NCBI GenBank assembly: GCA_038323375.1
Contig: JBBQGV010000015.1
Span: 974 to 64,973, forward strand
Origin: Chitinophagales bacterium
GTDB lineage: Bacteria; Bacteroidota; Bacteroidia; Chitinophagales; Saprospiraceae
Direction: 5' to 3'
Length of the DNA stretch: 64,000 nucleotides
Of the stretch, positions 11,538-64,000 are shown piece by piece. Numbering within the stretch: the first letter of the stretch is position 1; the number at the start of each line of letters is the position of its first letter. The translations under genes were made by a program, and so were the position numbers. The notes under the pieces are model-generated. The model was not told where the DNA came from. It searched no databases and worked only from the letters and a program-made list of their open reading frames with translations.

Positions 11538-11538
11538 T

Positions 11539-45216: not shown

Positions 45217-45217
45217 A

Positions 45218-45486
45218 CGCTTTGTTTCGCGGGCTTCGTTTCGCACGCTTCGTTTCGCACGCTTTGTTTCGCACGCTTTGTTTCGCGGGCTTCAGTCCGC
45301 TTTGTTCCACACGCTTTGTTTCGCGGGCTTCAGTCCGCTTTGTTTCGCACGCTTTGTTTCGCGGGCTTTGTTTCGCGGGCTTCAGTCCGCTTTGTTTCGC
45401 ACGCTTCGTTTCGCACGCTTTGTTTCGCGGGCTTCAGTCCGCTTTGTTTCGCACGCTTCGTTTCGCACGCTTCAGTCCGCTTTGTT
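45218..45486. repeat. degenerate 12-14-nt tandem array built from REP-2 half-sites (GCTTYGTTTCGCRS / GCTTCAGTCCGC), minus orientation
   Basis: About 20 consecutive units begin 2 nt upstream of the Roc-CHAT start codon. Confidence 0.8.
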
Positions 45487-48886: not shown

Positions 48887-49220
48887 TAACTTATTTTTTT
48901 TGATGCACCGGCGGCGGCCACGCCGATTTGGTGCTGCCCTGAAACATGGTGCAAGTGCGCGTAAAACTGAGCCGCTGAGACAGCAACCACGGCCTCGTGC
49001 TACCGGGCGAAGGCAAAGGCAATTTTGAACCGTTGCCCTCCGTAGCAAGCGGCATCCGCCTGAAAGGAGAAGTGTGGGCAGTGAAAATGGCCAGGCTTGG
49101 CTCCCGCGTACTCTTGCGTTTATCTTCTAATCATCAAAAGTCTCAAAAAGTCGCCTCAAAAAGCAACAATTCAGAAAATAAGGCGTTTTGTTGCGAATAA
49201 TTCGCAAAAACCCTCTTATT

Positions 49221-50137
49221 ATGCTGCTTCAATTTTCAGTTCGGAATTTTAGAACCTTCAAAGACAAAGCCTCTTTGAGCCTGATTGCTTCTAATTATGA
49301 CAAAGAGACTAGAGCAAGGGATTAGTTAGGAATAATGCCTTGTTACTCTCCGTTGCTGCGCAATTTAATGATAACATTTCCGAAAACGTTATTACCTGGT
49401 TTAACAGCTTAAAAACCATTTCAGGGCTAAGGGAAGAAGAGTATCAAGGCTATACAATGAATAGAACTCAAGATTCCCAATACAAAGATAAAATACTTGA
49501 TTTGCTTAAGTTCGCAGACATAGGGATTCATGATATAAAGCTCAAAATGCTTAATATTGATCAACTCCCCAAAGATATGCCCGATGAATTAAAACAATTA
49601 TTAACCAAAATAGCCAGAGAAAATGAAACTGAAATTTTTTCTGATATTTTAACTTCCCATAAAAAATTTGATGGATCAAAAAAATATGTCGGAGATACTA
49701 TATTGTCTTTAATTGACGATGAATCCTCCGGTACACGAAAATTTTTTGCTTTAACAGGGCTTATTTTAGACTCTATTGAAAACGGGCATACCTTAATTGT
49801 TGATGAACTGGATGCCAAACTGCATCCAAATTTAGTCTGTGAGATTGTTGCTCTTTTCAACTCTGGAAAATCCAATGCCAATAATGCACAACTCATTTTC
49901 AATACGCACGATACGAATCTCTTAAGCTCAGGTTTATTTAGGAGAGACCAAATCTGGTTTACAGAAAAAGATAAATTTGGAGCAGCAAAGTTGTATTCCA
50001 TGGCAGATTTTAAATCTGATGAGGTAAGGAAAAATGAAGCATTTGAGGAAACCTACCTTAGAGGAAAATATGGAGCTGTTCCTTTTTTGACGCACTTTGA
50101 TGAATTGACACTACAGAAACCTATTCCTGCAAAATGA
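49221..50137 (+). pseudogene. AAA_21-type ATPase (RloA/abortive-infection-like) with an internal deletion removing the Walker A region
   Basis: 49221-49325 encodes MLLQFSVRNFRTFKDKASLSLIASNYDKE... and then stops. ORF 49340-50137 carries the distal half (DESSGTRKFF, Walker B LIVDELDAKLHP, IFNTHD, RRDQIWFTEKD). No GxxGxGKS is present. Confidence 0.65.
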
Positions 50138-50534
50138 AAAACAAACAAGCAGATCAAATTGCGGCCAAAAAAAGACATCATGTTCAATTAAAAGAGAAAC
50201 GAAGAAGCGAACCTTTGCTGGAAAGAAATGGATCATTCTCCATCTTGAGGATCATTAGGGAGGCGGGATGAACAGAAGTGATTATGATGCTAAAATCAAC
50301 AACCTTTTAAGACCTTATAACCTTGTTTACGATGGAAAGAATAGTAAAATCATCACAGATGATTTTTTTGATCTGCTTGATGGCGTAGATGAAAAAACGA
50401 ATAAAGAGAGAAAGCTTTTAGCAATCAAGCGGGCTAAAAGGACTTATGATTTGTTTGATCATACAAATCCGGCAAGTGAAGAATCCTCAACGACTGTATT
50501 CAGGCTCGTTGAAGAATTATTGAAATATATTTAA
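50134..50534 (+). pseudogene. RloB-like (Toprim-type partner) remnant
   Basis: The start overlaps the ATPase stop (ATGA). A KWIILHLEDH-like motif is out of frame. Only a C-terminal 88-aa ORF (50268-50534) remains intact. Confidence 0.4.
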
Positions 50535-50987: not shown

Positions 50988-51881
50988 ATGATACCGAACT
51001 TCAATTTTCAAAAAAAGAGACTGACGCTGCCTGATCAAACGACCGTGGCTTACTTAGATACCGGGCACGATGCGGCTAAGCCTACCCTCGTCATGGTGCA
51101 TGGCTTAGGCAACAATGCTTCTGTTTGGCTCAGGCTGATGGCGCAAATTCAGGGTCAGTACCGCTGTATTGCCTTAGATTTGCCTGCTCATGGAGATTCG
51201 CAAGCCTGCACCCAAGCGTGTGGAATTAATTATTTTTCAGCAACCGTTGAGGGTCTTATTGAAGGCTTACAATTAGGCCAGGTGATGCTCATGGGCCACT
51301 CTATGGGTGGGTTGGTTTCGATCAAAACTATTTTGCGAAAGCCCACAGTCGTCAAGCAGTGCATTTTACTTGCCCCTGCTGGTTTTGAAACCTTTACGCT
51401 CAAGGAAAAAGCCTGGTTAAAAGCCATTTATGCGGTATGGATGCTCAAAAAGATGAGTGCAGCACGTATGGAACAGCAAACCAGAGAAAGTTTTTTCCGA
51501 TTCCCGCCTGATTTTGAGTTTGCCGTACAGGAAATTATCGCCATTCGCGAATCTCCGGAGGCATTCGAGGCGTACTGCGAAACGCTGTCTTTGTGCATGA
51601 ACAGCCTGCTTAATGAGTCGGTTTTTGATACCCTTTCCACCATTAGTCTGCCGTGCACTGTATTTTTTGGCATAGAAGACCTGACCATTCCCAACAAAGT
51701 CCTTCATCCGAACCTCACAGCCATCGAAGTAGCCGAGCAGGGGACGCGGAAAATTCCCAATGCCACCCTGCACTTGATTCCTGAATGCGGCCATACCCTC
51801 CAATGGGAGGCAGCTGATCAGATTGCTGATTTTTTACTAAATTTGGTTAGCTACTCTTCTTCCGCAGGTTCCGGACGCTGA
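50988..51881 (+). CDS. alpha/beta-fold hydrolase
   Basis: 297-aa ORF. HGLGNN oxyanion region, GHSMGG nucleophile elbow and a C-terminal CGH. Confidence 0.85.
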   Translation: MIPNFNFQKKRLTLPDQTTVAYLDTGHDAAKPTLVMVHGLGNNASVWLRLMAQIQGQYRCIALDLPAHGDSQACTQACGINYFSATVEGLIEGLQLGQVMLMGHSMGGLVSIKTILRKPTVVKQCILLAPAGFETFTLKEKAWLKAIYAVWMLKKMSAARMEQQTRESFFRFPPDFEFAVQEIIAIRESPEAFEAYCETLSLCMNSLLNESVFDTLSTISLPCTVFFGIEDLTIPNKVLHPNLTAIEVAEQGTRKIPNATLHLIPECGHTLQWEAADQIADFLLNLVSYSSSAGSGR

Positions 51882-53052
51882 CCTCTTCCCAAGAACGGCA
51901 ACCGGCTAATCCCAGGGTCAGGTCAATGTCTGCCAACAAATTCGTGATGACCTCGCGAACGCCTGCTTCCCCGCCTACCGCCAGCGCTAAGGCATAAGGC
52001 CGTGCCACCAGTACCGCCTTTGCGCCTAAGGCCATCGCTTTGAATACGTCTGCGCCACGTCGGATGCCGCTGTCGAACAAGACGGTCAGTTCATCCCCGA
52101 CGGCATTGGCAATTTCCGGCAATACCACCAATGAGCCTACCGCACCATCTACCTGCCTTCCGCCATGATTGGAAACTACGATGCCATCCACGCCATAATC
52201 CAACGCTTTTCGGGCATCGTCTATGTGCTGAATGCCTTTGAGTATGATGGGCATCCGGGTGCAATTCCGGATAACGGACAAGTCGTTCCAAGTTAGGCCC
52301 GGCCCGGTAAATACCTTCGTAAAATGGCGGATGGCTTTGAATTTATTTTGCTCAGGGTCGCCGCCTACGGCCTCCCGGAATACCGGATCGCCGAAGTAAT
52401 TGGCCAAGCCGTGGCCGTGCAAAAATGGCAGGTATCCCAGCTGAATATCACGTTCGCGCCAAGCCAAAACCGGGGTATCAAGAGTCACCACTAAGGCCGA
52501 ATACCCGGCCTCTTCTGCCCTCCGAATGACACTCCTTGTAAAATCGTGGTCGCGCCCCCAATACAACTGAAACCAATGTGGGTTTTCTGCGTTTTCCCGG
52601 GCGATGTCTTCCATAGGCATAGATGACACGTTGCTAACCACTTGTGGCACCTTCATGGAACGCGCAGCACGGGCAACCGCCAATTCAGCTTCCGGGTGTG
52701 CAATGGACAATACACCTACCGGCCCGAGTAATAAGGGAGAAGGCAAGCGCTGTCCAAACAGTGTAACGCCCATATCTGCATTAGAAATATCCACCAACAT
52801 ACGTGGCACAATTTGCCAATCATCCAGCGCCTCCTGATTGTTGCGCATAGTTGTTTCCCCGCCAGCGCCGCCTGCAATGTAGGCAAAGGCTTCGGGTGTC
52901 ATTTTTTCCGAGGCTTCTTGAAGTAAGTCTTCATAAGAAACCGGAAATTTATTTTTCCGGTTGAACAGGCCATTCAGGTAAATGTGCATCTGTCGCTCTA
53001 CACCAAAGGAAGGGCGCTCCATTTGTAAGGTATCACCGGTTCTATTTTTCAT
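51847..53052 (-). CDS. FMN-dependent alpha-hydroxy-acid oxidase/dehydrogenase (lactate oxidase/LldD-like)
   Basis: 401-aa ORF with VVSNHGGRQVDG, ILKGI and DSGIRRGADVFKA motifs. Confidence 0.85.
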   Translation of the reverse strand: MKNRTGDTLQMERPSFGVERQMHIYLNGLFNRKNKFPVSYEDLLQEASEKMTPEAFAYIAGGAGGETTMRNNQEALDDWQIVPRMLVDISNADMGVTLFGQRLPSPLLLGPVGVLSIAHPEAELAVARAARSMKVPQVVSNVSSMPMEDIARENAENPHWFQLYWGRDHDFTRSVIRRAEEAGYSALVVTLDTPVLAWRERDIQLGYLPFLHGHGLANYFGDPVFREAVGGDPEQNKFKAIRHFTKVFTGPGLTWNDLSVIRNCTRMPIILKGIQHIDDARKALDYGVDGIVVSNHGGRQVDGAVGSLVVLPEIANAVGDELTVLFDSGIRRGADVFKAMALGAKAVLVARPYALALAVGGEAGVREVITNLLADIDLTLGLAGCRSWEEVSVRNLRKKSS

Positions 53053-53054
53053 AA

Positions 53055-54347
53055 TTAAAATAGTTTATTTAAATAAAAAACTGCCTGAATAAAATTAATT
53101 TCTAATTGATCAAAATGGTATCGTTTGCCTCCTGTTTGCTCGTTTTGCAGCGTGAGGCCGGGGAAATAGCGAACATTGGTGCGCAGTAAAAAGGATTGGA
53201 GGCGATTGGGGCGGATGTCCCATCCAAAAATATACCCCAATTTCCACTGGTCTTCTTTAGCCTGAAAAGCGGTGCCAGGGTTTAGTGCATCCCCGCCAAT
53301 GGCCTCCAACCGTTCCCAGCCCGGGCTTATTCCAATAAAAGGAACAAACCCCTTGTAATCAAACAAAGATTTGCAAAGGTCTAATGACAAGGCTTTGCGG
53401 CGAAACTCCAGCGTACTGCCATAAGCGCTAATTTCACTGTTGATGCTCCGGTAAGACAGGTTGAGGTGCGCGTCTAATTTGTGGTGATAATAGCCTGCGC
53501 CCCATTCTATAAAAACATTCCCCCCCCTGTGTCGGCCCATATAAGGTGCTACATCGGTTGATTCCTTCAGGAAAAAAGTAGAAGAAACGCCCACTGCTGC
53601 TGAAAAGGTATTGAGTTTACCTGCTTTCCCGAGGCGATCCTCCAGCTCTTTGGTACGGCCATTGAGCAAGTCTTCTTCTGCCGAAACCGTCGTGTCCAGT
53701 AAATAACGGTATCCTATTCTGAATTGAAGTGGGGGCAAACGGAGTGTCGAGGCAGCAACCCGATCGAAATAATAAGTAGCCTTGTTGTTGTACATCCACG
53801 TGGCTGACAATTCAAAATAGTGCTTTTTATTGGCAATGGTGCTTACCCCGGCATGAATTGGGTAGCTCACTTTATTGTAATTGGAGCCGTCGTCGCTTTT
53901 GTCGTCTGTTTTACCGAGGTATCTAAAATTCAACGAATTGAAAGACATGCCCACAAAAGGGCTAATTTTTGCGGTATAAGGCGTTTTCCACAAAAAATAT
54001 CGGAAACCGGTTTCTGTGCCGGTAGCATAATCCGTTGTTCGTGTGCCTGATTGCAAATTGAGGATGGGAATGTTGATAAAAAAATCCACTTTCCCCCAAA
54101 AATGCATACCGGAAATATTCAGGTGCGTCGCCGAACGCGGTGCAAAAGAAAGTTTGTCAGGCTCGCTGCCTGCCACACCCGACACCTTCGTTTCCCATGC
54201 GGGGGCATATCCGGTATAGATCCCGAAGCCACTCTGGGCAAAACGGTGTTGGGTTTTAGGAGAAATAACCTCCGAGTTTTCTTGTCCAATGATTATGGTA
54301 TTGGACACAAACAGCAGGCAGCAGAGCGAGACAAATAGACGCATCAT
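53055..54347 (-). CDS. outer-membrane beta-barrel protein, function unknown
   Basis: 430-aa ORF with a signal peptide, alternating aromatic/hydrophilic strands and a terminal ...YLNKLF. It starts 8 nt after the KS-like gene and ends 2 nt before the oxidase gene. Confidence 0.55.
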   Translation of the reverse strand: MMRLFVSLCCLLFVSNTIIIGQENSEVISPKTQHRFAQSGFGIYTGYAPAWETKVSGVAGSEPDKLSFAPRSATHLNISGMHFWGKVDFFINIPILNLQSGTRTTDYATGTETGFRYFLWKTPYTAKISPFVGMSFNSLNFRYLGKTDDKSDDGSNYNKVSYPIHAGVSTIANKKHYFELSATWMYNNKATYYFDRVAASTLRLPPLQFRIGYRYLLDTTVSAEEDLLNGRTKELEDRLGKAGKLNTFSAAVGVSSTFFLKESTDVAPYMGRHRGGNVFIEWGAGYYHHKLDAHLNLSYRSINSEISAYGSTLEFRRKALSLDLCKSLFDYKGFVPFIGISPGWERLEAIGGDALNPGTAFQAKEDQWKLGYIFGWDIRPNRLQSFLLRTNVRYFPGLTLQNEQTGGKRYHFDQLEINFIQAVFYLNKLF

Positions 54348-54355
54348 GATTGAAT

Positions 54356-55621
54356 TTAATTATATCGACTTAAAATAATGGAAGTTGTATTTCCACCAGC
54401 CTGGATGGAGTTGACCATCACCTTTTCCAAAGGTACGTGTTCCAATGTTTCTCCCGGAATGGTCACCCTGGCATTGGTGGGGTTATTAAAATAACTACCA
54501 GCCCAGCCCGTTCCAAGCACTTCTTCGTTTTGCATCATCAGCGCAGCCGCTACCAGCGAAGTTTGGCCCGAAGCCCCAAAAGTTTCCCCAATAAATGGTT
54601 TTATTGTGGTGTAGTAGAGGTCTTCATTTTTCCAGATTTCATCAATTGCCTTTCCTTCGTATTCGTTGTACTGCCAAGGCAGGCAAGAAGCCCCCACGAC
54701 ACAGTCGATATCCGAAGGCGCAAGCCCTGACAATTTTAAGCTTTCCTCCATTACGTGTTTGAAGTCGGCCTCATTTTTTTCAAAGAAGAAATTGTCGTGA
54801 GCGCCGTCAAAGCCGGTATTGTAATTGAGTACTTCTGCATAAATATCGGCACCTCTTTCCAGTGCATGGTCTAATTTTTCCAGAACCACAAAGGCCGCAG
54901 CTTCGCCAATAACGGTTTTTCGCTCGTTTTTTGCATAGTCGAGGGCACGTTTGAGGGCCGTTTCCGCAGTTGTATCGGCATTCTCCGAAGGGCAGTCAAG
55001 CAAATATCCGCTTTCGTTATAAAAAATCAAATGAATGTCCCTTATTTCATCAAAACCACCACAAATAATGATGTCGGCATCGTCATTTTTCAGGAGGTCG
55101 AAGCCGTAGCAAACGCTGTCTTCCCCCATCAGCAAAGAGCTTGAACCCCTGAATTTATAGTACCGCGTGGTGTCGCCCAAGACTGTATTCGACACCGTTT
55201 TTGTGAAGTCGAAAGGACTGGCTTTGCGCGGACCTTCGCGAAACAGCTTTTCCAGATAGGCTTCAACGGCTGCATTGGCCGCCATTGACGTATTCAGAAT
55301 CAGGCCAATCCGATCTGGTGAAAGCTGGTTGCCTTCCAGTTTGGCACTTTTGACTGCCGTTTGGCACCCCAACATGGCGAGTTGGGAGTACCGGAGTGGA
55401 AATGGCGCTTTCAAATCGGCAAAATATTCTTTGATGTTGATTTCCGGACACGGATAAAAATATGTCTGATCCAGCCCTGATTCGTTCCAGGTGTTTTTGA
55501 TAACGACCCCACTTTGTCCGGACTTGAGGCTTTGGTAATAAGTTTCAGCGCCAATGCCGATGCTGGAGACCATGCCTACTCCTGTGATAACGATGCGTTC
55601 ATTTTGTGGTATAGATTTCAT
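54356..55621 (-). CDS. ketosynthase-like protein lacking catalytic residues (chain-length-factor-like)
   Basis: The 421-aa thiolase-fold ORF is colinear with the KS at 62693-63898. The active-site TACASG position reads SLLMGED, and the two His motifs (HGTAT, GHALGAAG) are replaced (GASCLPW, GETFGASG). Confidence 0.75.
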   Translation of the reverse strand: MKSIPQNERIVITGVGMVSSIGIGAETYYQSLKSGQSGVVIKNTWNESGLDQTYFYPCPEINIKEYFADLKAPFPLRYSQLAMLGCQTAVKSAKLEGNQLSPDRIGLILNTSMAANAAVEAYLEKLFREGPRKASPFDFTKTVSNTVLGDTTRYYKFRGSSSLLMGEDSVCYGFDLLKNDDADIIICGGFDEIRDIHLIFYNESGYLLDCPSENADTTAETALKRALDYAKNERKTVIGEAAAFVVLEKLDHALERGADIYAEVLNYNTGFDGAHDNFFFEKNEADFKHVMEESLKLSGLAPSDIDCVVGASCLPWQYNEYEGKAIDEIWKNEDLYYTTIKPFIGETFGASGQTSLVAAALMMQNEEVLGTGWAGSYFNNPTNARVTIPGETLEHVPLEKVMVNSIQAGGNTTSIILSRYN

Positions 55622-55626
55622 AATAT

Positions 55627-56112
55627 TTAGCTAGGTTTGGTAAGGTGAACGGTAATATTTCCTTTAGCGACTACTTCGTTTTGTGCATCCAGTACTTTTC
55701 CGTCATATACCGAAAAGTCCATGAATTTTTGCTTAATGAATACAACTATTGTAAGCTCTGAATTCGGAAAAACCGGTTTAACAAAGGTGGTTTTATCAAT
55801 TTTAATGGCCCGGCCCATCATTTTTTTATCCGATATATTTTCTCCCGATGCAGTACCGATCTGGTTTTCGATCATTTCCATCCGGCCAAAAAGACCGCAT
55901 GTTTGGAACATCATTTCTACCAGAATAACCCCCGGCAGCATGGGATAACCCGGAAAATGGCCCTTAAAAAAAGGCATGTCGGCGTTTACCTGTGTTTTGG
56001 CGGTGAGCGAGACACCGGGTTCGTAGCTTACAATTTCGTCCACCAGCAACATGGGTGGGCGGTGTGGCAATAAAGTTGCCGGTTTGGGAAAAGTCAAGGT
56101 ATTCGTACTCAT
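55627..56112 (-). CDS. FabZ/FabA-like 3-hydroxyacyl-ACP dehydratase (hot-dog fold)
   Basis: 161-aa ORF with HFPGYPMLPGVILVEMMFQ. Confidence 0.8.
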   Translation of the reverse strand: MSTNTLTFPKPATLLPHRPPMLLVDEIVSYEPGVSLTAKTQVNADMPFFKGHFPGYPMLPGVILVEMMFQTCGLFGRMEMIENQIGTASGENISDKKMMGRAIKIDKTTFVKPVFPNSELTIVVFIKQKFMDFSVYDGKVLDAQNEVVAKGNITVHLTKPS

Positions 56113-56885
56113 ATTGTTTGTAATATTTTTGTAGATACTGAAATTTGATCTAATATAGAACGAGACAAATCTGCTTCTGAAAAATGTCGAACATCCATTA
56201 AAAATTGATTTTTACTGGCTACCCAGCATAAATAATCCCTGTCTATTTGTACCGATTTAAGTATGTATTCCTTGCGGCTGGTCAAGGCTGCGTCCATATC
56301 CCGAAGCCCTTTGCCCGAGCATTTCACCTGTGCTTCTAATGCTGTCCAGTCTTCTATGTTGATGGAATCTGCGTGCGTAGTCAGCCCTTTGACGGCTTGT
56401 CCGAAGCGCAAAAAACTGCTTCGGTCTTTTTTGCACTGTACGTCAATGCCTACAATGCCTTCGTAGTTGATGGCACAAGCAATCAAATCCCGGGAATGAG
56501 ACAGGTTAAAGTCAAAATCCCCTACCCGGATAAATGGCCGTCCAAGTGCATCGTATTGCATCGGAAAACTGGCAGGCGATGCATCGGGATATACTTCGCG
56601 GAGGCCTTCGTACACCAACAATTTACTCAGGATCGATTTTAGCCGGTCAGCATGTTTTAAGTAGCGACTCCACCGATTCCGGATGGCTTCCGGAAACAAA
56701 GTCGCGTATGCCAGTAACAGATCCTGAAAAGAATTACTTTTTTCATAATAAGCATAACATAATAAATTCGCCAAAGGTAACTTGCCGTTGCTCTTCAATG
56801 AGTGCCGTACAATTGGCAAGAGACCGGTGCTTGTCGCGAAATACCTGAACGAAGTCTTTCTGTACAATTTCTGAATATTCTGCAA
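56109..56885 (-). CDS. Sfp-type 4'-phosphopantetheinyl transferase
   Basis: 258-aa ORF. FNLSHSRDL, GIDVQ, WTALEAQVKCSGKG. It overlaps the dehydratase start by 4 nt. Confidence 0.75.
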   Translation of the reverse strand: MQNIQKLYRKTSFRYFATSTGLLPIVRHSLKSNGKLPLANLLCYAYYEKSNSFQDLLLAYATLFPEAIRNRWSRYLKHADRLKSILSKLLVYEGLREVYPDASPASFPMQYDALGRPFIRVGDFDFNLSHSRDLIACAINYEGIVGIDVQCKKDRSSFLRFGQAVKGLTTHADSINIEDWTALEAQVKCSGKGLRDMDAALTSRKEYILKSVQIDRDYLCWVASKNQFLMDVRHFSEADLSRSILDQISVSTKILQTI

Positions 56886-56915
56886 GTTTGTAGCTATAAG
56901 TATCCATTGATCTAT

Positions 56916-58127
56916 CTATTTATGAATTTCCAAAACGCCTATATTCAGTAGGTCTCTAATAAAAATTGATTCAAAGCCTTCTTCTTCCATCTCTTGTTTG
57001 AGCTTTATTGACATTTTAAAAAGGCTTTTAAAGCAAGGCTCTGTCAGTTGAAAACACTGGTATGTGCGCTTGTTCAATAAAAAACAGTCATTTTCAATCA
57101 TAAATAAGCCAAAATTGGTTTTATTAAACTTCAATTGGGTATTAGCTGGTAAATCTGCATAATTAGCGGTGCTAATGTCTCGGGTAGTACTCACTTCCGG
57201 CGGTAAATATTTGTGCAGATAAAGCCATGTTTCCCATTGATCGTAGTATTGTATCAGATATTTTTCCAGCTCACTGTATAACTTGCGGGTTACTTCCGGG
57301 ATGTATTCTTTGGGAGCTCCGGCCCACTCTTTGGGGTCTATTTTAGGCAAAAGCAAGACTTTTGGAGGTTTTCTTTCCTCATCCGGATAATAAGAAATCA
57401 CGGGAATAATCGGGCGTTTGTTCATCCAGGAAATGGCTGCAATCCCTTTTCGGGAATTGATTTCCTGGCCAAAAAATGGAATTCTTAAATGAAACTGTTC
57501 TGACTTGTGGAAAATACCGCCCCCACCAGTATTGCCGTCAATGTAGGCAATAATGGATTTGCCTTCATAAAGGCATTTTGAAAGCGTCATGGCAATATTA
57601 GGCGACTCTGCGTTCAAAAGATCAAAAAACGCAGTTACTCCAAATGCTTTGTGTATCTCGGCCACCTTTTTCCGGATGCTGTCTCCCTGACGATGGTAGG
57701 TGTTTTCATCTACAATCAAAACAAAATCAAGACCTTTACTTGCCACAATGCCGATAACCGACCGATAAGACCCCAGGTGGTAGGTACAAATAACCGCCGG
57801 GAAATTTTCGGGTGCTAAAGCAGCTTCTGCACCGACTACGTCCAAGCGGTCAATTAATTCCGGCATCCCGGTTTCTTCATTGAGCAGGGCACGGCCGTAA
57901 AGCAGCTTCAAATAAATATCTTCGTATGCTGACGCTGGTATGTGGGGCAAAAATCGTTCCAGATTTGCCGTCAGAAATGTAAAATCCTTTAGTTGTAGCT
58001 GATCGAATTTCCGCTGTTCCCGCAATTGGATTTCTTGCCTCAACCCTTTGTAGCTCTCCACGTGTGGAAGGACGTTCGGGCTTTTATTTGAACCAGATTG
58101 AAATACAGGTATCGTTTCGACTGTCAT
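56916..58127 (-). CDS. LpxL/HtrB-type (lipid A biosynthesis-like) acyltransferase with an extra C-terminal domain of about 90 aa
   Basis: 403-aa ORF. YHLGSY (Hx4-type motif), a FFGQEINSRKGIAAISWMNKRPIIPV block and QWETWLYLHKY. The tail (FGLFMIENDCFLLNKRTYQCFQLTEP...FIRDLLNIGVLE) resembles a PqqD-like peptide-binding fold. Judged by eye. Confidence 0.55.
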   Translation of the reverse strand: MTVETIPVFQSGSNKSPNVLPHVESYKGLRQEIQLREQRKFDQLQLKDFTFLTANLERFLPHIPASAYEDIYLKLLYGRALLNEETGMPELIDRLDVVGAEAALAPENFPAVICTYHLGSYRSVIGIVASKGLDFVLIVDENTYHRQGDSIRKKVAEIHKAFGVTAFFDLLNAESPNIAMTLSKCLYEGKSIIAYIDGNTGGGGIFHKSEQFHLRIPFFGQEINSRKGIAAISWMNKRPIIPVISYYPDEERKPPKVLLLPKIDPKEWAGAPKEYIPEVTRKLYSELEKYLIQYYDQWETWLYLHKYLPPEVSTTRDISTANYADLPANTQLKFNKTNFGLFMIENDCFLLNKRTYQCFQLTEPCFKSLFKMSIKLKQEMEEEGFESIFIRDLLNIGVLEIHK

Positions 58128-58141
58128 ACGTATTGCTATTT

Positions 58142-59443
58142 TTAATTTAAAACTTCCGTAGCCAACTGCTCTCTTCCTACCTCCTCGCAGTTAAAATTAT
58201 TGAGTGTAAAAAGATTAATGATGTTCAATATCAGCTCAACAGAGGTTTGCATAGTACGATCCTGCATATCCATATCCGGGTTCACCTCAACCAGGTCAAT
58301 GCCAATGATTCGGCGGTCCGTCAGCACCAATTGCAGCAGTTGAATCAGCTCCGAAAGATCCAGGCCATTGGCAACGGGGGTAGCGGTAGCAGGCGCAACA
58401 ACAGGATCTAGTACATCAATGTCAATGGTCAAATAGACTTGTGCGTCCATTGGAATGAAAGACAAGTCGAGTTCATCATGGATGGATTTTTTCAGGTCGC
58501 TGCACCAGAAAACATGCTGTTTCGAATTATGGGGCCGCCCCATGAGGTTAAATATCCCCCTGATTCCCATCTGATAAATGCCTTTTACTTTCGAAATTTC
58601 GAGGCACCGGCTGGCAAAATTGCCGTGATGGTGTACTTTTTCAGCGTGATTAAGACTGTCATACTTAGAGGTATAGGTATCCGTATGGGCGTCCATGTGT
58701 ACGATGTAAATGTCATCAAACACCGCCGATGCAGCTTTTACAATCGGATAGGTTACAGAGTGGTCGCCTCCAAGAAAAAACGGAATATTCCCTTGTTGGA
58801 AAATCTGGAGCGCTGTTTTTTCTATTTTCCGGTAGATATAGGATTTAGATTCGTGGATGCTGACAAATAAATTGCCCAGATCTTTGATTAAATCCTTTTG
58901 CAAAAGTTCGAAAAAACAAGAGTTACTTGAGTCAATGCCTACCGCTTCAAGGCTGTAATTCCCAGCGCTTGCTGCATCTAAGTGCAACTTGTATTCGTTG
59001 GTGTACTCCCGGAGTTTTTCCGGAAAATGCGCACAGCCCACTGATTTGGGATTGCCCCCGCCATAAGGAATTCCGACAAAGCATAAATTGGCAAAATGCG
59101 GGTTTGTTTCGTCGTTCAATCCAAAAAGCGTATGTTTTAGTCTTGTCAGTATAACGAGCTGGTCTTCGAGAATGTCATTCTGAAATACGAGCCCGCGACT
59201 TACAAAAGAAGACAATGCTTGTTGTAGATCACCTGTGGGGTACTGTGGGAAAGCGGCCATAAGACCTTCAAACGTTTTGGGGATTTCCAGAAACCGCAAA
59301 ATGCTCATTGCTGTTTCTTTTACCTGAAATACCTTCCCCGACAGGGTGTTGTACAATTTATGTGCTGCATCTTCTCCTTTTTCGCGCTCTATGAGCAAGT
59401 AAGGCGAAATGATGTAGTTGGTAATTACTTTATTGTTTTCCAT
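58142..59443 (-). CDS. arginase/agmatinase-family ureohydrolase fused to an N-terminal PqqD/RRE-like domain (candidate peptide arginase)
   Basis: 433-aa ORF. C-terminal GGDHSVTYP, HMDAHTD, TIDIDVLDP and DLVEVNP Mn-binding motifs. The N-terminal 90 aa (LYNTLSGKVFQVKETAMSILRFLEIPKTFEGLM...LSSFVSRGLV) are RRE-like. Confidence 0.8.
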   Translation of the reverse strand: MENNKVITNYIISPYLLIEREKGEDAAHKLYNTLSGKVFQVKETAMSILRFLEIPKTFEGLMAAFPQYPTGDLQQALSSFVSRGLVFQNDILEDQLVILTRLKHTLFGLNDETNPHFANLCFVGIPYGGGNPKSVGCAHFPEKLREYTNEYKLHLDAASAGNYSLEAVGIDSSNSCFFELLQKDLIKDLGNLFVSIHESKSYIYRKIEKTALQIFQQGNIPFFLGGDHSVTYPIVKAASAVFDDIYIVHMDAHTDTYTSKYDSLNHAEKVHHHGNFASRCLEISKVKGIYQMGIRGIFNLMGRPHNSKQHVFWCSDLKKSIHDELDLSFIPMDAQVYLTIDIDVLDPVVAPATATPVANGLDLSELIQLLQLVLTDRRIIGIDLVEVNPDMDMQDRTMQTSVELILNIINLFTLNNFNCEEVGREQLATEVLN

Positions 59444-60731
59444 CGCGTCTATTTCTTATCAGGTTTTTAATACTATTCCGCACAATGCCTGAATTATGTT
59501 GATAACGCTTGTAAAAAATAAATGAGAATATGGTCGTAGCAAGTGCTGTTTTTCCCATTGATTCAATGGCACAGACAGAAAAATCGAGCTGATAAATGTT
59601 GTAAAAAACTTGTTTCCATGCATAAAATGCTTGTCCGATAAATTTGATAACGACATAAGCAATATATCCCCAAAATACGTAGCTGCAAATAGAATAAATT
59701 GCCAAAAAAGGGTTCTTTACATTCACTAACTGCCGCGTTCTTTCAGAAACCTGGAATGGCAGGCTGGGAAAAATGCGCTTTAGGAACAAAGTCCACCAAG
59801 CATCTGACTGCAACCGCAGGTTCGGAAGCTTAAATAAATCGCTATAAATCCAGTAGCCGTCAAACCGGAAGAAGGGGTTAAAATTAATGAATATGGTTAC
59901 TGTATTGATAACGATCAGACTCCTGAGTATACTGATGGTTTCCATATCGTAGGAGTTTTTAACCCAGTAAATCAACCCAAGATTAATCAATAACTGGAAA
60001 AATATTCCTCCAAAATTCACAATAATGCGTTTGAGGCGGCTGAGTTTCCAGGTTTCAGTTACATCCGTATATAATACTGGAAAAATAAAATAGAAGCCAA
60101 AACCGATACTTTTGGGTGGCGCTTTGAACAAGTATGAGGAGGCCGCATGCCCCAGTTCATGGATAAAAAGAATGAAAATTGCTACCGGGTAATAGATAAA
60201 AATATGCCCCAAATTTTTTAGGCACTCGGTACCCGAACTGGCAAATGTCCCGCCGGCTGCCGCTGCATCGTTGTATTGCGAAAATTGCTGGATATAATAA
60301 TAATTCAAACCCGCACCCGCCAACAGAAGCGTAAAAAAAGGTATCGGATAAAAAAAGTATTTCAGTATTTCAAGGAGCCATTTAAGCTGCTCAAACCGAA
60401 AAACATCCCAATGGCCAGTAAACCCGGACAGCATTCTGTCGGTTTTGTTTTTTTCCAGGCTTTCATCGTGTATGACCTCACCTGCTTCATTAAATATTTT
60501 AAGAGGTTTAATTTTTTCTTCGATAATTTGGGCAACGGTTTCTTCTGTAAATTCATATTGACCACGAGACCAGTTGTTTAGGCTAACCGTAATTTCCGGT
60601 TTTGTCTTTTTCTCTGTCAGTTGATCTATGATGATACGCAACAATTCTCCTATGTAATAATTGGTGCCATTGATCTGCAACAGGTACTGTTTATTGTCGT
60701 TACCGGTTTCTACTTCTTGTATGGTGTACAT
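59430..60731 (-). CDS. polytopic membrane zinc metalloprotease (M50/site-2-protease-like, HELGH)
   Basis: 433-aa ORF with multiple TM helices and HELGHAASSY inside a helix. Its soluble N-terminal domain of about 110 aa could bind peptide. Confidence 0.65.
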   Translation of the reverse strand: MYTIQEVETGNDNKQYLLQINGTNYYIGELLRIIIDQLTEKKTKPEITVSLNNWSRGQYEFTEETVAQIIEEKIKPLKIFNEAGEVIHDESLEKNKTDRMLSGFTGHWDVFRFEQLKWLLEILKYFFYPIPFFTLLLAGAGLNYYYIQQFSQYNDAAAAGGTFASSGTECLKNLGHIFIYYPVAIFILFIHELGHAASSYLFKAPPKSIGFGFYFIFPVLYTDVTETWKLSRLKRIIVNFGGIFFQLLINLGLIYWVKNSYDMETISILRSLIVINTVTIFINFNPFFRFDGYWIYSDLFKLPNLRLQSDAWWTLFLKRIFPSLPFQVSERTRQLVNVKNPFLAIYSICSYVFWGYIAYVVIKFIGQAFYAWKQVFYNIYQLDFSVCAIESMGKTALATTIFSFIFYKRYQHNSGIVRNSIKNLIRNRRDGKQ

Positions 60732-60790
60732 AATATATTATTTTAATTTTAAATAGAGCTTGGTATAAAAGCGTTGCCGTTAACGCGATA

Positions 60791-60837
60791 ACAAAAAGGG
60801 GCCGGGATATTGAATATGATAACCCCATCCCAGCCCC
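60791..60837 (-). terminator. Rho-independent-type hairpin between the last precursor gene and the protease gene (possible attenuator)
   Basis: Minus-strand RNA reads GGGGCUGGGAU-N18-AUCCCGGCCCC followed by UUUUU. Confidence 0.6.
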
Positions 60838-60939
60838 TTATACGCAATCAAACTAAGTGACTACTAAATTGCAGTTGCAAGAACTACTACAAGGCGTTTT
60901 TCAGTTCTACATGCTGCATGATCGTAAAAAAATCAGGTA

Positions 60940-61080
60940 CTATCCAGCTGCGGGTGGCGCGGCGGGTGTTTTCACTGTGTTGCCACTGCAGCGTGCGGTA
61001 TCCACAGCCGCTACCGTCATTTCAAAACGGCCTTCCAATTCAACTACGGACAATGCATCTTTGATTTCAAAATTGTTCAT
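60940..61080 (-). CDS. candidate RiPP precursor peptide, 46 aa (variant core)
   Basis: Manual translation: MNNFEIKDALSVVELEGRFEMTVAAVDTARCSGNTVKTPAAPPAAG. It shares the conserved 31-aa N-terminal region with the three genes at 61752-62308. Confidence 0.6.
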   Translation of the reverse strand: MNNFEIKDALSVVELEGRFEMTVAAVDTARCSGNTVKTPAAPPAAG

Positions 61081-61161
61081 AATAAGTAAATTTTGGTAAT
61101 TAGAAAATTAGAAAATAAAAATCTCAGTCATTAGCAGTAAACAAAAGTCGGTCATACTAAG

Positions 61162-61323
61162 GGTCGCTGAAATAATAACTGTTCACTTTTCCAGGAGGTC
61201 TTTTGCTCCTACTCTGCGTTGGAGAACCACCTCCCTTAGCTATGGCTAAGGTCGGGAACCCCCGCCTCGGTTAGCCACAAAATGCCTTGCCTGGCAAAAG
61301 CGACACTTGTTAATTCAGCGCCC
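61162..61323. mobile_element. MITE-B copy 1 (162 bp), TIR GGTCGCTGAAATAATAAC / GGGCGCTGAATTAACAAG, TSD CTAAG
   Basis: CTAAG occurs at 61157-61161 and 61324-61328. It is near-identical in length and sequence to copy 2. Confidence 0.75.
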
Positions 61324-61473
61324 CTAAGGAATCAAACAGGATAAAGATGTATTTACCAGATCCATTCTATTGATGTGTATCATTTATAAGTTAGATACCA
61401 TTCGTGAGTTGCCAATCGGTTACAAGTATCTTTATTCCTGCTTTTTTCAGCAATTACTGGCTGTACTTTTCAA

Positions 61474-61574
61474 TTAGTTAGCCAAGGTCCTGGACTCATC
61501 GGAAACCGATTTGTTGATCTTGCTGTCGTTGCAACGTGCAGTATCCACGGCAGCTACGGTCAGTTCAAAACGAT
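61474..61574 (-). pseudogene. 5'-truncated precursor-peptide gene
   Basis: It encodes only ...RFELTVAAVDTARCNDSKINKSVSDESRTLAN. The N-terminal half and spacer are replaced by the junction ...AAAACGAT|ATAATTACGCTTAG next to MITE-B copy 2. Confidence 0.6.
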
Positions 61575-61588
61575 ATAATTACGCTTAG

Positions 61589-61750
61589 GGTCACTGAAAT
61601 AATAACTGTCCACTTTTCCAGGAGACCTTTTGCGCCTACCCTTCATTGAAGAACCGCCTCCCTTAGCTTTGGCAAAGGTCGTGAACCCCCGCCTTGATTA
61701 GCCACAAAATGCCTTGCCTGGCAAAAGCGACACTTATTAATTCAGCGCCC
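61589..61750. mobile_element. MITE-B copy 2 (162 bp), TSD CTTAG
   Basis: CTTAG occurs at 61584-61588 and 61751-61755. The right-hand TSD overlaps the stop codon of the 61752-61898 precursor gene. Confidence 0.75.
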
Positions 61751-61751
61751 C

Positions 61752-61898
61752 TTAGTTGGCCTGAGCAGGTTCAGAAGAGGCCTTCACATCTGCTTTGTTG
61801 TCGTTGCAACGTGCAGTGTCTACAGCGGCTACGGTCAGTTCAAAACGATTTTCGAGTTCTACCACTGACAGGGCATCTTTAGTGTCAAAATTGCTCAT
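61752..61898 (-). CDS. candidate RiPP precursor peptide, 48 aa
   Basis: Manual translation: MSNFDTKDALSVVELENRFELTVAAVDTARCNDNKADVKASSEPAQAN. Confidence 0.65.
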   Translation of the reverse strand: MSNFDTKDALSVVELENRFELTVAAVDTARCNDNKADVKASSEPAQAN

Positions 61899-61956
61899 GA
61901 TAAAAAGATTGATTGATTAAAAAATAGAATTAAGAGACGGCTTAAAATAATTACGC

Positions 61957-62103
61957 TCAGTTGGCCTGAGCAGGCTCAGAAGAGACCTTCACATCTGCTT
62001 TGTTGTCGCTGCACCGTGCAGTGTCCACAGCGGCTACGGTCAGTTCAAAACGATTTTCGAGTTCTACCACTGACAGGGCATCCTTAGTGTCAAAATTGCT
62101 CAT
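61957..62103 (-). CDS. candidate RiPP precursor peptide, 48 aa
   Basis: Manual translation: MSNFDTKDALSVVELENRFELTVAAVDTARCSDNKADVKVSSEPAQAN. Confidence 0.65.
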   Translation of the reverse strand: MSNFDTKDALSVVELENRFELTVAAVDTARCSDNKADVKVSSEPAQAN

Positions 62104-62161
62104 GATAAAAAGATTGATTGGTTAAAAAATAGAATTAAGAAATGGCTCAAAATGATTACGC

Positions 62162-62308
62162 TTAGTTGGCTTGAGCAGGCTCAGAAGAAGCCTTCACATC
62201 TGCTTTGTTGCCATCGCAGCGCGCAGTATCAACAGCGGCCACGGTAAGTTCAAAACGCTCTTCGAGTTCTACTGAGGACAGCGCATCTTTGATTTGAAAA
62301 GTTGACAT
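62162..62308 (-). CDS. candidate RiPP precursor peptide, 48 aa
   Basis: Manual translation: MSTFQIKDALSSVELEERFELTVAAVDTARCDGNKADVKASSEPAQAN. Confidence 0.65.
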   Translation of the reverse strand: MSTFQIKDALSSVELEERFELTVAAVDTARCDGNKADVKASSEPAQAN

Positions 62309-62387
62309 ACTTAAAAATTTAAATGGTTAAAAAATATGAATGAATTAGATTTTGCAAAAAGCGCTAATACCCTGATTGTGTGTTTAA

Positions 62388-62669
62388 TTAGTCTTCTGCT
62401 TCCACCAGCAGGTTGCGCTGAATCATCGCGCTCAGTGTCTCTACGTTCTGGAAGGATTCTTCGTTAAATTCCGTAGGAATGATTCCGAATTCTTCGCCGA
62501 GGCGGGTAGAGATTTCAAGGACAGCGAGGGAATCCTGAATAATTCCGGGATCTTCATCAGTCCCGAAAAACGGCGCATCGTTTTTGATGTCTGCTGCCGT
62601 AATGTCTTCCAATTCCAATACATCAATAATGCATTGTTTTACTTTTTCCTGAATTGCATTGAGTTCCAT
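62388..62669 (-). CDS. acyl carrier protein
   Basis: 93-aa acidic ORF with a DSL phosphopantetheine-attachment motif (IIQDSLAVLEI). Confidence 0.85.
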   Translation of the reverse strand: MELNAIQEKVKQCIIDVLELEDITAADIKNDAPFFGTDEDPGIIQDSLAVLEISTRLGEEFGIIPTEFNEESFQNVETLSAMIQRNLLVEAED

Positions 62670-62692
62670 AATCTTCTATTTTTATAAATTAA

Positions 62693-63898
62693 TTAATTAA
62701 AATTTCTGATTGCTACCGAGGCCATATTCCCTGAAAACCCGAAGGAGTTGGACAGTGCCAGGTTAATTTTATAGTCAATGGCTTTTCCTTCTACCAACCG
62801 AATGTTATCAGGAGTGACAATGGACTCTTTCACGTTAATGGAAGGGGGGACGAAGTTTTTGTAAACCCCCAAAGTTGTAGCGACAAACTCTACACTGCCC
62901 GCTGCCCCCAGCGCATGACCAATCAGTGATTTGGTAGAGCTGACATACACCGGGTGCCCATCTACCAATTGTTCGATGGCCCTGATCTCCATCTTGTCGT
63001 TCGCCAGCGTAGCGGTACCGTGTGCATTGATATAATCTACCTGACTGGGCGTAGCACCGGACATTTTAAGTGCATTGAACATGGCCTGCTTGGCAAAAAT
63101 GCCATCCGGGTGAGGCGCTGTGGCGTGATAAGCTTCGTTGACAATCGAATATCCTGAAACTTCTGCCAGAATCGGCGCATTCCTTTTTTGAGCCGACTCC
63201 AGGCTTTCCATTACTACGTAGGCAGCAGCATCGCCAAGGTTCAAGCCATCCCGGCCTTTATCGAAGGGCTGGCAAGCACCTTTCGACAGGGCAAACAGCG
63301 AGTTAAATCCGCTGTAAGTCAGGTAAGTAAATATATCAACCCCACCTGCAATCATACAATCTACCCGGTTACTCCGGATCAGATCGAAGGCTCTTCCGAT
63401 CGAGTTGGTGCCCGAAGCACAAGCTGTGGAGATCGTAGATAATGGGCCGCGTATGCCAAAATGGGCTGCGATTCGGGAAGTGATATTGGGCGTGATGTGC
63501 AACAACAACGCATAATCCCGCTCTTCGCCTTTAATTTTGTTTTTCACCCAATCCATAAAGGGATAACTTCCTCCAACCGACGTGCCAAGACAAAGCCCCA
63601 CGCGTCTGGGATCGGTGCTACTCAAGTCTAAATTTGCCCTTTCAAGCGCCTCACCGATCGCCCGCACCGACAATTCGCCAAGGATCGTAACGTCTTTTTC
63701 ACGGGCCGCTTCGTAAATACCCTGGTCAATGGTACATCCCTGGCGGCTTCTGAAGAACTCGTCAGACAAGTCAAAGCGTTGAGTAGAAATGTCTTTGAGG
63801 CCAGATTTGCCTTCACGCAGGTTTTGTTCAAATTCATCCAGATTATTGCCGATGGAGCAAATGACGCCCAAACCGGTCACAACTACTTTAGATGCCAT
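62693..63898 (-). CDS. beta-ketoacyl-ACP synthase (FabF/KAS II-like), catalytically complete
   Basis: 401-aa ORF with the Cys-His-His triad context STACASGTNS, NAHGTATLAND and GHALGAAG. Confidence 0.9.
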   Translation of the reverse strand: MASKVVVTGLGVICSIGNNLDEFEQNLREGKSGLKDISTQRFDLSDEFFRSRQGCTIDQGIYEAAREKDVTILGELSVRAIGEALERANLDLSSTDPRRVGLCLGTSVGGSYPFMDWVKNKIKGEERDYALLLHITPNITSRIAAHFGIRGPLSTISTACASGTNSIGRAFDLIRSNRVDCMIAGGVDIFTYLTYSGFNSLFALSKGACQPFDKGRDGLNLGDAAAYVVMESLESAQKRNAPILAEVSGYSIVNEAYHATAPHPDGIFAKQAMFNALKMSGATPSQVDYINAHGTATLANDKMEIRAIEQLVDGHPVYVSSTKSLIGHALGAAGSVEFVATTLGVYKNFVPPSINVKESIVTPDNIRLVEGKAIDYKINLALSNSFGFSGNMASVAIRNFN

Positions 63899-64000
63899 AA
63901 AACTATTTTTTTAGACTACTTGTCAATTAATCGCTGTTCTCAAAATTAGCCAGGAAGTATCTATCTTATTTTTTGCTATTTAAACCCTGGTTTTATACGC

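Follow-up and report, generated by a model that had tools for sequence, protein, structure and literature searches.

A candidate cluster for a lipidated ribosomal peptide in a Saprospiraceae genome joins a precursor array to an arginase-family fusion, an LpxL/PatA-fold acyltransferase and an acyl-chain gene set

Some lipopeptides, daptomycin and polymyxin among them, are important medicines, and ways of making such molecules from genes are wanted for engineering. In the published accounts searched, the characterised ribosomal lipopeptide routes, the lipoprotein pathway aside, use acyltransferases of the GNAT family. Among peptides that are made on the ribosome and modified after translation (RiPPs), the selidamides (kamptornamide, phaeornamide and the nostolysamides) are made by conversion of arginine to ornithine followed by fatty acylation of the side chain, and some members use a native lysine: the acceptor of NpuA is Lys, while KspA and PhaA need an arginase first. 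The selidamide arginases belong to PF12640 (OspR type), the acyltransferases are GNAT enzymes, the precursors also pass a class II lanthionine synthetase, and there is no dedicated set of ketosynthase (KS) and acyl carrier protein (ACP). Here we describe a gene cluster in a 64,000-nt stretch of DNA from a Chitinophagales bacterium of the Saprospiraceae (the window, whose positions serve as coordinates), in which all cluster genes lie on the minus strand. The logic proposed for this cluster is that of the selidamides, whereas the enzymes differ: the arginase belongs to PF00491 and bears a putative fused RiPP recognition element (RRE), and the acyltransferase has an LpxL/PatA fold, again with a putative fused RRE. 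As an earlier note made from the sequence alone had stated, no GNAT, lanthipeptide, YcaO or radical-SAM gene is visible; we found no such class-defining enzyme in 51847-64000 or in the extension provided by the near-identical contig L091.

The earlier note had also taken arginases that act on RiPP arginines as established, which holds for the well-studied OspR-type enzymes of PF12640; for PF00491, the family of the window enzyme, KgrD of enteropeptin is the only case described (PMC12703449). The target Arg of KgrD adjoins a Cys as well, but this Enterococcus enzyme requires prior formation of a thiomorpholine by a radical-SAM enzyme, and the ornithine is then N-methylated, with no acylation (PMC12703449). 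We found no report of a fused RRE on KgrD.

Daptides (MpaA precursors, MpaP protease) resemble the window cluster in their several tandem precursor genes, in an E-L-E motif of the leader (ELExMEAP in daptides, ELExRxE in the window family) and in the make-up of the leader peptidase, an RRE-fused intramembrane site-2 protease in daptides and a predicted intramembrane HExxH protease with an N-terminal RRE-like domain in the window. However, their invariant C-terminal Thr is absent from the window-family peptides, and none of the scanned cluster genes (window and L091) has a Pfam or NCBIfam match to the MpaC/D/M-type oxidative decarboxylase, aminotransferase and methyltransferase; the MpaB/C/D/M enzymes, which turn the daptide Thr into a dimethyl-diamine, thus have no counterpart among these genes. 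The window protease reaches 77 bits on a daptide model with a cut-off of 300, and the modifying enzymes are instead an arginase and an acyltransferase. From these sequence likenesses the two leader/protease cassettes appear related, a kinship overlooked in the earlier claim that the combination fits no known RiPP class; the enzyme pair itself is indeed undescribed in the literature searched.

Goadvionins, lipolanthines and lipoavitides are likewise RiPPs whose clusters have their own acyl-chain genes, and the goadvionin acyl group is delivered from an ACP. Goadvionins and lipolanthines use GNAT acyltransferases, the acyl group of lipoavitides and goadvionins sits at the N-terminus or in the N-terminal region, and none of the three involves an arginase or an enzyme of the lysophospholipid acyltransferase (LPLAT) fold. 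The type II synthases of aryl polyenes and flexirubins (with an ApeD-type acyltransferase) are similar to the window cluster in combining a KS and a dead KS with an ACP, a ketoreductase (KR), an ApeI/ApeP-like dehydratase (DH) and an LPLAT enzyme, and with the AMP-ligase of sister contigs; none of the window cluster genes reaches an aryl-polyene or flexirubin equivalog cut-off, and we know of no precursor peptides, RRE domains, arginase or HExxH leader peptidase in such loci. Finally, LpxL/LpxM and mycobacterial PatA share the fold of the window acyltransferase (Foldseek E about 1e-11), which differs from them in reading HX4R rather than HX4(D/E), in an extra C-terminal RRE-like domain of about 75 aa and in having peptide-related neighbours rather than genes for lipid A or phosphatidylinositol mannosides. 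LpxL and LpxM take acyl-ACP donors. No description of an LPLAT-fold enzyme or of an RRE-fused PF00491 enzyme in a RiPP pathway was found in the literature covered, which excludes most subscription-journal papers, so that a prior description is possible. Within that literature, the cluster would represent a leader-guided lipidated RiPP with two enzyme types new to RiPPs.

We consider it probable that the cluster makes a ribosomal, post-translationally lipidated peptide through conversion of Arg to Orn, acylation and leader removal. Our confidence is high that the cluster is of the RiPP kind and that its peptides are acted on by the arginase, the acyltransferase and the protease, and this assignment draws on conservation, domain architecture and co-occurrence. 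Loci were fetched around homologues of the arginase fusion and annotated by iterated profile searches (L-numbers denote fetched loci or contigs, P-numbers proteins from homologue searches). The protease accompanies the arginase fusion in all of the 11 distinct clusters (11/11), the acyltransferase in 9/11 and ELExRxE peptides in 10/11; the two missing acyltransferases and the one missing peptide fall at the edges of fetched loci. The association of peptide family and arginase fusion across Bacteroidota that the earlier note proposed to test is thus confirmed. Peptides, protease and arginase fusion occur together in three Saprospiraceae lineages, Chondrinema litorale (with about 10 peptide genes), Spirosoma validum, a Chitinophagales metagenome-assembled genome (MAG), Aquimarina, Hymenobacter coalescens, Pedobacter sp. 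PAMC26386 and two unassigned metagenome contigs. Listed in the direction of transcription, the peptide array and the three enzyme genes are:

62162-62308, minus strand: precursor peptide 1, 48 aa, ...VELEERFELTVAAVDTARC-DGNKADVKASSEPAQAN
61957-62103, minus strand: precursor peptide 2, 48 aa; the identical protein P0183 occurs on 12 contigs
61752-61898, minus strand: precursor peptide 3, 48 aa
61584-61755, minus strand: MITE-like (miniature inverted-repeat transposable element) 172-nt repeat beside the truncated peptide gene, 90% identical to 61157-61328
About 61474-61573, minus strand: 5'-truncated peptide gene remnant (RFELTVAAVDTARCNDSKINKSVSDESRTLAN), repeat family D3
61157-61328, minus strand: second copy of the MITE-like 172-nt repeat, whose terminal inverted repeats (TIRs) fold at -40.7 kcal/mol (z=-6.9)
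60940-61080, minus strand: precursor peptide 4, 46 aa, whose tail differs from the others
60788-60839, minus strand: terminator- or attenuator-like hairpin with U-tract between peptide and enzyme genes (-30.1 kcal/mol, z=-4.3, for 60796-60839)
59430-60731, minus strand: polytopic HExxH (site-2-protease type) predicted leader peptidase with N-terminal RRE-like domain (daptide_HExxH, 77 bits)
58142-59443, minus strand: putative fusion of an RRE to a ureohydrolase of the arginase/agmatinase family (PF00491, E=2e-52)
56916-58127, minus strand: LpxL/PatA-fold acyltransferase, 403 aa, with C-terminal RRE-like domain (AlphaFold2 and Foldseek)

Each gene of the earlier list was recovered at its minus-strand place and in the order given there, by listing the open reading frames (ORFs) of the window, which are tightly packed and co-directional at every position named, and by family searches.

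The four intact peptide ORFs are genuine coding sequences. Three of them form tandem units of 205 nt, and all four products have a conserved leader (L-x-V-V-E-L-E-x-R-F-E-L/M), followed by a spacer rich in Ala, Val and Thr, an invariant Arg-Cys and a variable hydrophilic tail. An alignment of 11 peptides from 3 genomes consists of a conserved 23-residue block with variable tails behind it, and within the 23 codons of this block the 11 genes differ by 576 synonymous and 149 non-synonymous changes, an excess that indicates purifying selection on the peptide ORFs. Conservation of the small ORFs had been named beforehand as a point on which the proposal could fail; they are conserved, and their family occurs in more than 10 genera. 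Family-wide, the leader motif is [V/I]-E-L-E-x-R-x-E-[L/M], and a basic residue plus Cys follows the Ala/Val/Thr-rich spacer (ARC, DRC, GRC, IRC, KRC, sometimes AKC or IKC, and R-S in one distant case); the C-termini of the window peptides and their relatives are N, G, E, A, K and so on, with no invariant Thr. No Pfam or NCBIfam model matches any peptide of the family in searches of these curated collections, and the peptide homologue search returned 5 proteins only, every one labelled 'hypothetical', because genes this short seldom get called. A lipoprotein route was considered and rejected, as the residues preceding the Cys do not make a lipobox and a signal peptide is lacking.

The two 172-nt repeats lie in direct orientation, have TIRs of about 40 nt and bracket the truncated peptide gene. 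They occupy matching positions in L091 and L092, so that their insertion is older than the split of these strains. The flanking repeats agree with the earlier description, whose label 'MITE-B' can be checked on no more than the two copies that the window holds. The hairpin behind the last peptide gene, also noticed earlier, is a strong fold, which none of 200 shuffles equalled (0/200). A scan for promoter and terminator consensus sequences gave counts no higher than in shuffled sequence and, by its loop-size rule, skipped this large hairpin; an Rfam search of 51000-64000 returned no matches.

The arginase fusion scores 178.6 bits on PF00491 against a cut-off of 22. The ligands of its binuclear Mn site, H228, D251, H253, D255, D341 and D343, are invariant in 38 homologues and lie in the motifs GGDHS, DAHTD and DIDVLDP. 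The ureohydrolase domain has an agmatinase fold (E=2e-22), superposes best on agmatinases and guanidino-acid hydrolases, and counts proclavaminate amidinohydrolase among its closest structures too. In the AlphaFold2 model (pLDDT 90) four strands and three helices precede this fold, and a profile of the N-terminal part built from 32 homologues matches residues 6-90 of TigE with E=2e-11; residues 3-85 of this radical-SAM enzyme are the crystallographic RRE according to the TigE paper. The fusion of a PqqD-like domain to an arginase, and its overlap of 14 nt with the protease gene, were read correctly from the letters. A genome-collection scan with the arginase alignment gave only 4 fusion-type loci among 80, its output being swamped by ordinary agmatinases.

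The acyltransferase was modelled with a pLDDT of 88, and Foldseek places it next to PatA (5f2z, 9e-12) and LpxM (5kn7, 1e-10). Its C-terminal residues, about 75 of them, match TbiB1, a lasso-peptide RRE in a leader-bound complex (Foldseek probability 0.98), and hhalign pairs this tail with the RRE of the arginase (76%, E=2e-5). In the models, the N-terminus of the arginase and the C-terminus of the acyltransferase alike consist of strands and, after them, three helices. The earlier assignment as an LpxL-type enzyme with an RRE-like tail hence stands as to fold and tail, while the 403-aa protein itself has no Pfam match, PF03279 included, and no HX4(D/E) motif; PF03279 is carried by 20 of its 62 listed homologues. 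Within the family, His117, Asp197 and Arg226 are invariant and Arg122, at position +5 from the His, is nearly so. Comparison with PDB sequences, by single sequence and by profile, returned only designed TIM barrels and thus no residue alignment to PatA or LpxM.

The protease keeps the motifs HExxH (as HELGH) and NxxPFxxxDGYW. It matches just two NCBIfam models, daptide_HExxH and the YydH/LiaK epipeptide protease (53 bits), both of them RiPP maturation proteases, and its match to Peptidase_M50 (PF02163) is weak. By hhalign, its N-terminal domain resembles the RRE of the arginase (94%, E=1.6e-7); among PDB sequences this domain best matches, in both cases weakly, the N-terminal part of TruD, a cyanobactin heterocyclase whose RRE region lies there, and a lasso PqqD chaperone. 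These matches fit the earlier view of a polytopic protease that processes the peptides. Searched as single sequences against Pfam up to E 10, the three segments taken for RREs gave no PqqD match, and profiles or structure models were needed; on that combined basis the arginase, the acyltransferase and the protease are each predicted to carry an RRE domain.

The partner chemistry varies between clusters. A KS/ACP/KR/DH set is present in the window, L001, L003, L005, L006 and L096; LanB and LanC-like proteins are the partners in L088, radical-SAM enzymes in L090 and L096, and in L085 an ABC transporter together with ATP-grasp-like and SPASM-like genes identified by eye. Because the partners change, the three RRE enzymes and the peptide make up a portable module. 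The examples differ in detail:

In L088 (Pedobacter sp. PAMC26386, CP060294.1 4040822-4062045) the neighbours of the module are a complete LanB dehydratase and a cyclase of LanC-like type, the 52-aa precursor gene (...IRCDSESALEN) occurs in six identical copies, and the predicted product is a lanthipeptide that is also Orn-modified and lipidated. In L085 (Hymenobacter coalescens, 11264-13601) a 347-aa protein like an ATP-grasp peptide maturase and a 311-aa protein like the SPASM partner of 'grasp-with-spasm' systems, both assigned by eye, come right after the acyltransferase gene. The related loci L096 and L098 encode R-C peptides, and around their set of KS, ACP, acyltransferase-RRE and ligase lie a C39-peptidase ABC transporter, a radical-SAM/SPASM enzyme, an enoyl-reductase-like zinc dehydrogenase and an Rce1-like protease; 21 kb of these loci contain neither an arginase nor an M50 protease.

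The module is flanked on both sides in the window by genes that would supply the acyl chain, or that lie at the cluster border:

62693-63898, minus strand: active FabF-like ketosynthase, the first visible acyl-chain gene (PF00109/PF02801; TIGR03150, 334 bits; Cys-His-His intact)
62388-62669, minus strand: dedicated ACP (PP-binding, 21.8 bits; NF006617; DSL motif)
56743-56907, minus strand: stump of an AMP-ligase gene, a 54-aa ORF (deletion junction 56764-56780)
56109-56774, minus strand: Sfp-type phosphopantetheinyl transferase (PPTase), 221 aa from the ATG used in L091 (AASDHPPT_N, HetI/AcpT models)
55627-56112, minus strand: FabZ/ApeI-like dehydratase (PF07977, E=6e-20)
54356-55621, minus strand: catalytically dead ketosynthase, like a chain-length factor (PF00109/PF02801; Cys and both His replaced)
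53055-54347, minus strand: predicted outer-membrane protein, 430 aa (with a signal peptide, ending in Phe; L001, L005 and L095 have orthologues)
51847-53052, minus strand: FMN-dependent alpha-hydroxy-acid dehydrogenase/oxidase, the last co-directional gene (PF01070, E=1e-125)

Both statements of the earlier note on the ketosynthases hold: TACASG, HGTAT and GHALG are intact in the first, and the second, in a pairwise alignment, lacks the Cys and both His. The PPTase was rightly called Sfp-type, as the family models confirm, but its start is probably at 56774, as on the near-identical contigs; the gene overlaps that of the dehydratase by 4 nt. The FMN enzyme is a doubtful member of the cluster; it has a counterpart after the cluster in L001 and L002, and none was detected in L005.

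Over the cluster, three contigs, L091, L092 and L094 (two from JGI, one from ENA), match the window at 99.8-99.9% identity and continue beyond position 64000, where an extension had been advised. The cluster goes on there with a FabG/FlxB-like KR, two proteins without assignment (232 and 210 aa) and an outer-membrane barrel of CarboxypepD_reg/TonB-receptor-like type (725 aa; L091 5600-7777); housekeeping ilv genes come next and thereby mark the boundary. The same contigs hold 1,426 bp between the acyltransferase and PPTase genes that are absent from the window and encode a 497-aa AMP-binding ligase. The junction of this deletion lies in a 17-nt near-repeat, and the loss could be either a real deletion or an artefact of MAG assembly. 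The ligase is kept at the same position in L001, L091/L092, L094 and L096, and a cut AMP-binding gene precedes a PPTase-like gene in L003 and L004.

In full, the acyl-chain set comprises KS, dead KS, ACP, KR, DH, ligase and PPTase. The ACP beside the KS is conserved in L001, L003, L005 and L096, and the dehydratase counterparts in L091, L001 and L003 have ApeP-like or ApeI-like matches. The cluster in its Saprospiraceae form has no enoyl reductase, and by analogy this aryl-polyene-like architecture suggests an unsaturated or hydroxylated chain. On FlxB, a flexirubin model with a cut-off of 340 bits, the KR scores only 214 bits, and several genes have further sub-threshold matches to cispentacin or flexirubin models, among them a weak one of the ligase to cispentacin AmcH below the NCBIfam cut-off; we read these as general type II similarity and not as membership. 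The 430-aa outer-membrane protein has no match in the family searches. TonB-receptor-like barrels are frequent alongside the module, with similar ones in at least 7 other genera, and the flanking outer-membrane barrels (430 and 725 aa) could serve export or re-uptake of the product.

Altogether, a pathway can be proposed. The four intact small genes would encode precursors made up of leader, spacer, Arg-Cys and variable tail, and the three enzymes would dock on the leader, each through its own RRE. The ureohydrolase would remove the guanidino group of the Arg before the Cys, giving ornithine and urea, and the LpxL/PatA-fold enzyme would then transfer an acyl chain from the ACP of the cluster to the side-chain amine of this Orn; alternatively, the neighbouring Cys thiol may be loaded, possibly with a subsequent shift to the amine. 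The chain would be assembled by the KS with its dead partner, the KR and the dehydratase on an ACP primed by the PPTase. The AMP-ligase of the sister genomes is also part of the set, in an assumed chain-starting role. Once lipidated, the peptide would partition into the membrane, where the intramembrane HExxH protease would cleave the leader, and the outer-membrane barrels encoded at both cluster ends may export the product.

The choice of residue is suggested by comparison of loci with and without the arginase. In 13 distinct loci with the enzyme (44 distinct peptides), the Cys follows Arg in 38 peptides and Lys in 5, never another residue (0), and one peptide has R-S and no Cys. In 16 distinct loci without it (26 distinct peptides), R-C occurs in 8, K-C in 3, other Cys contexts in 10, with mostly S, A or G before the Cys, and no Cys in 5. 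Five of those 8 R-C peptides come from L099, a locus cut before the arginase (the same cluster as L100), and 3 from L096/L098. The counts are not phylogenetically independent; they nonetheless show a clear association, at the level of sequence, of an Arg before the conserved Cys with the presence of the arginase. A single 829-aa metagenomic protein, P0259, unites the RRE-arginase and the acyltransferase-RRE (one found among 1.84 billion representatives searched); its halves are 34% and 35% identical to the window proteins (E about 1e-74 each), and such a fusion argues for consecutive action of both enzymes on the same substrate. The use of Lys in place of Arg, as in selidamides, supports the conversion to Orn of the Arg in DTARC that the earlier note had proposed. 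We attach moderate confidence to this conversion at the R-C site, and lower confidence to the placement of the acyl group on the Orn.

Several observations weigh against the proposed pathway. The acyltransferase reads H117-x4-R122 where HX4(D/E) is canonical, so that its activity would depend on a remote acidic residue as in PatA. In PatA a remote Glu (Glu200) partners the catalytic His, and the invariant Asp197 may substitute in this role, a suggestion drawn from its position in the sequence. The leader motif ELExRxE holds a second invariant Arg that is an alternative target of the arginase, and 21 kb of the L096/L098 type contain R-C peptides but no arginase. In the acyltransferase-RRE family at large, neighbouring peptides share only the Cys and no basic residue, which favours Cys as acyl acceptor. 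The source genome has lost the AMP-ligase, and it carries a truncated peptide gene and inserted MITE-like elements; the pathway may therefore be impaired there or, through the loss of the ligase, incomplete. Finally, no product has been detected: gene content, domain fusions, conservation and co-occurrence are computed, and from them we infer every chemical step and the order of steps.

A RiPP cluster of the same make-up in which the acyl group resides on the conserved Cys thiol, or on the new N-terminus after leader removal, is a possible but less likely arrangement. Orn would then be made for charge, for protease resistance, or for a later S-to-N shift or cyclisation. About 40 arginase-free acyltransferase-RRE loci speak for it, since their upstream short ORF nearly always has one conserved Cys after S, A or G; in the distant arginase cluster that lacks the Cys, a Ser comes after the Arg. 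LPLAT-fold enzymes, too, normally acylate hydroxyl groups. Against it, a thioester would be a labile end product, arginase clusters restrict the position before the Cys to Arg or Lys, as if an amine side chain mattered, and the P0259 fusion suggests that both enzymes act consecutively at one site.

It is also conceivable, if unlikely, that the source genome holds a decaying or silent copy which yields no finished product, with the family functional elsewhere. The 1,426-bp deletion removes a ligase gene that is intact in three independent near-identical assemblies, and a truncated peptide gene sits between the MITE-like repeats. Yet the remaining genes are intact and 99.9% identical to those of the undeleted contigs, and these contigs hold the MITE-like repeats as well, at a spacing that leaves room for the truncated gene, so this feature does not signal decay of the source genome alone. 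A deletion between 17-nt near-repeats could be an artefact of MAG assembly, and L008, L085, L088 and L090 are without a dedicated ligase in the fetched range.

It seems very improbable that the ureohydrolase acts not on a peptide but on some free guanidino compound, such as a starter derived from arginine or the terminus of the acyl chain, in the manner of amidinohydrolases of some polyketide pathways. Structurally the enzyme is nearest to agmatinase, guanidino-acid hydrolases and proclavaminate amidinohydrolase, and the AMP-ligase of the sister clusters could load an unusual acid, its similarity to AmcH being weak and below cut-off; but the arginase carries a predicted RRE, occurs with peptides and protease even where KS, ACP and ligase are missing, and an Arg before the Cys goes with its presence. 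Finally, the cluster is almost certainly not an ordinary aryl-polyene, flexirubin or lipid A remodelling locus with small ORFs as chance frames, a reading rejected in its aryl-polyene-only and lipid A forms: KS, dead KS, ACP, KR, ApeI/ApeP-like dehydratase, sister-contig AMP-ligase and LPLAT enzyme do resemble aryl-polyene sets, as does the FlxB score of the KR, but this is contradicted by purifying selection on the peptides, by RREs on three enzymes, by a protease that matches RiPP maturation protease models and by a portable module that recurs without KS genes beside lanthipeptide, radical-SAM or ATP-grasp enzymes.

If the Orn-lipopeptide mechanism is true, two unrelated leader-guided enzyme types would carry out known reactions, an RRE-PF00491 arginase and an ACP-dependent LpxL-fold acyltransferase-RRE, and with a dedicated acyl-chain synthase both peptide and lipid would be genetically programmable. 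The three-enzyme module appears mobile, with natural clusters that join it to lanthipeptide, radical-SAM or ATP-grasp chemistry.

The acyltransferase extends well beyond this module. Its RRE-containing profile retrieved at least 520 representative clusters (at 50% identity) with E<=1e-30, a lower bound, and almost every match extends over the whole protein, the tail included. With the acyltransferase-RRE as anchor, a metagenome scan returned 80 loci, most of them without arginase and protease. Among the arginase-free, protease-free loci of at least 12 kb, 20/27 carry a PF06580-type histidine kinase and a LytTR regulator; in 23/48 loci of at least 12 kb the kinase starts less than 1 kb from the acyltransferase gene, usually 1-70 nt after it. 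The short ORFs upstream form recurrent families, one of them with the related leader IEELEARFK, and nearly all have a single conserved Cys after S, A or G; as Cys is what the presumed substrates have in common, S-acylation stays a rival to N-acylation of Orn. The order peptide, enzyme, kinase and LytTR is like that of agr, which is the basis for reading these loci as lipidated-pheromone systems. We tentatively speculate that the RRE-fused LpxL/PatA-type superfamily could be a new Cys-directed class of lipidated RiPPs in Bacteroidota, mostly agr-like lipidated pheromones (a quorum-sensing chemistry not known in the phylum), with the window cluster as an elaborated Orn-lipopeptide branch. In any event, the hundreds of family members, many of them wired to two-component regulators, point to unexplored peptide chemistry in Bacteroidota, possibly with a role in signalling.

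A four-gene cassette of Cys-peptide, acyltransferase-RRE, PF06580 kinase and LytTR protein is found in L086, L106, L115, L123, L137-L159 and others. Tandem double acyltransferase-RRE proteins also occur (P0295, 829 aa; P0316, 854 aa), and L006 and L099/L100 carry two adjacent paralogues.

Elsewhere in the window, and unrelated to the cluster, a 957-aa protein at 42373-45246 (minus strand) has LRR, Roc GTPase, COR-A/COR-B and CHAT protease domains, which make it a Roco protein of bacterial type with a fused caspase-like domain. Closer to the cluster, the GC content falls to 35-37% at positions 49000-50500 (about 47-53% in the flanking windows), where an AAA_21 (AbiEii-type) ATPase gene lies at 49340-50137, and L094 is 403 bp longer at window position 49316/49317; this patch may be a small mobile or defence island.

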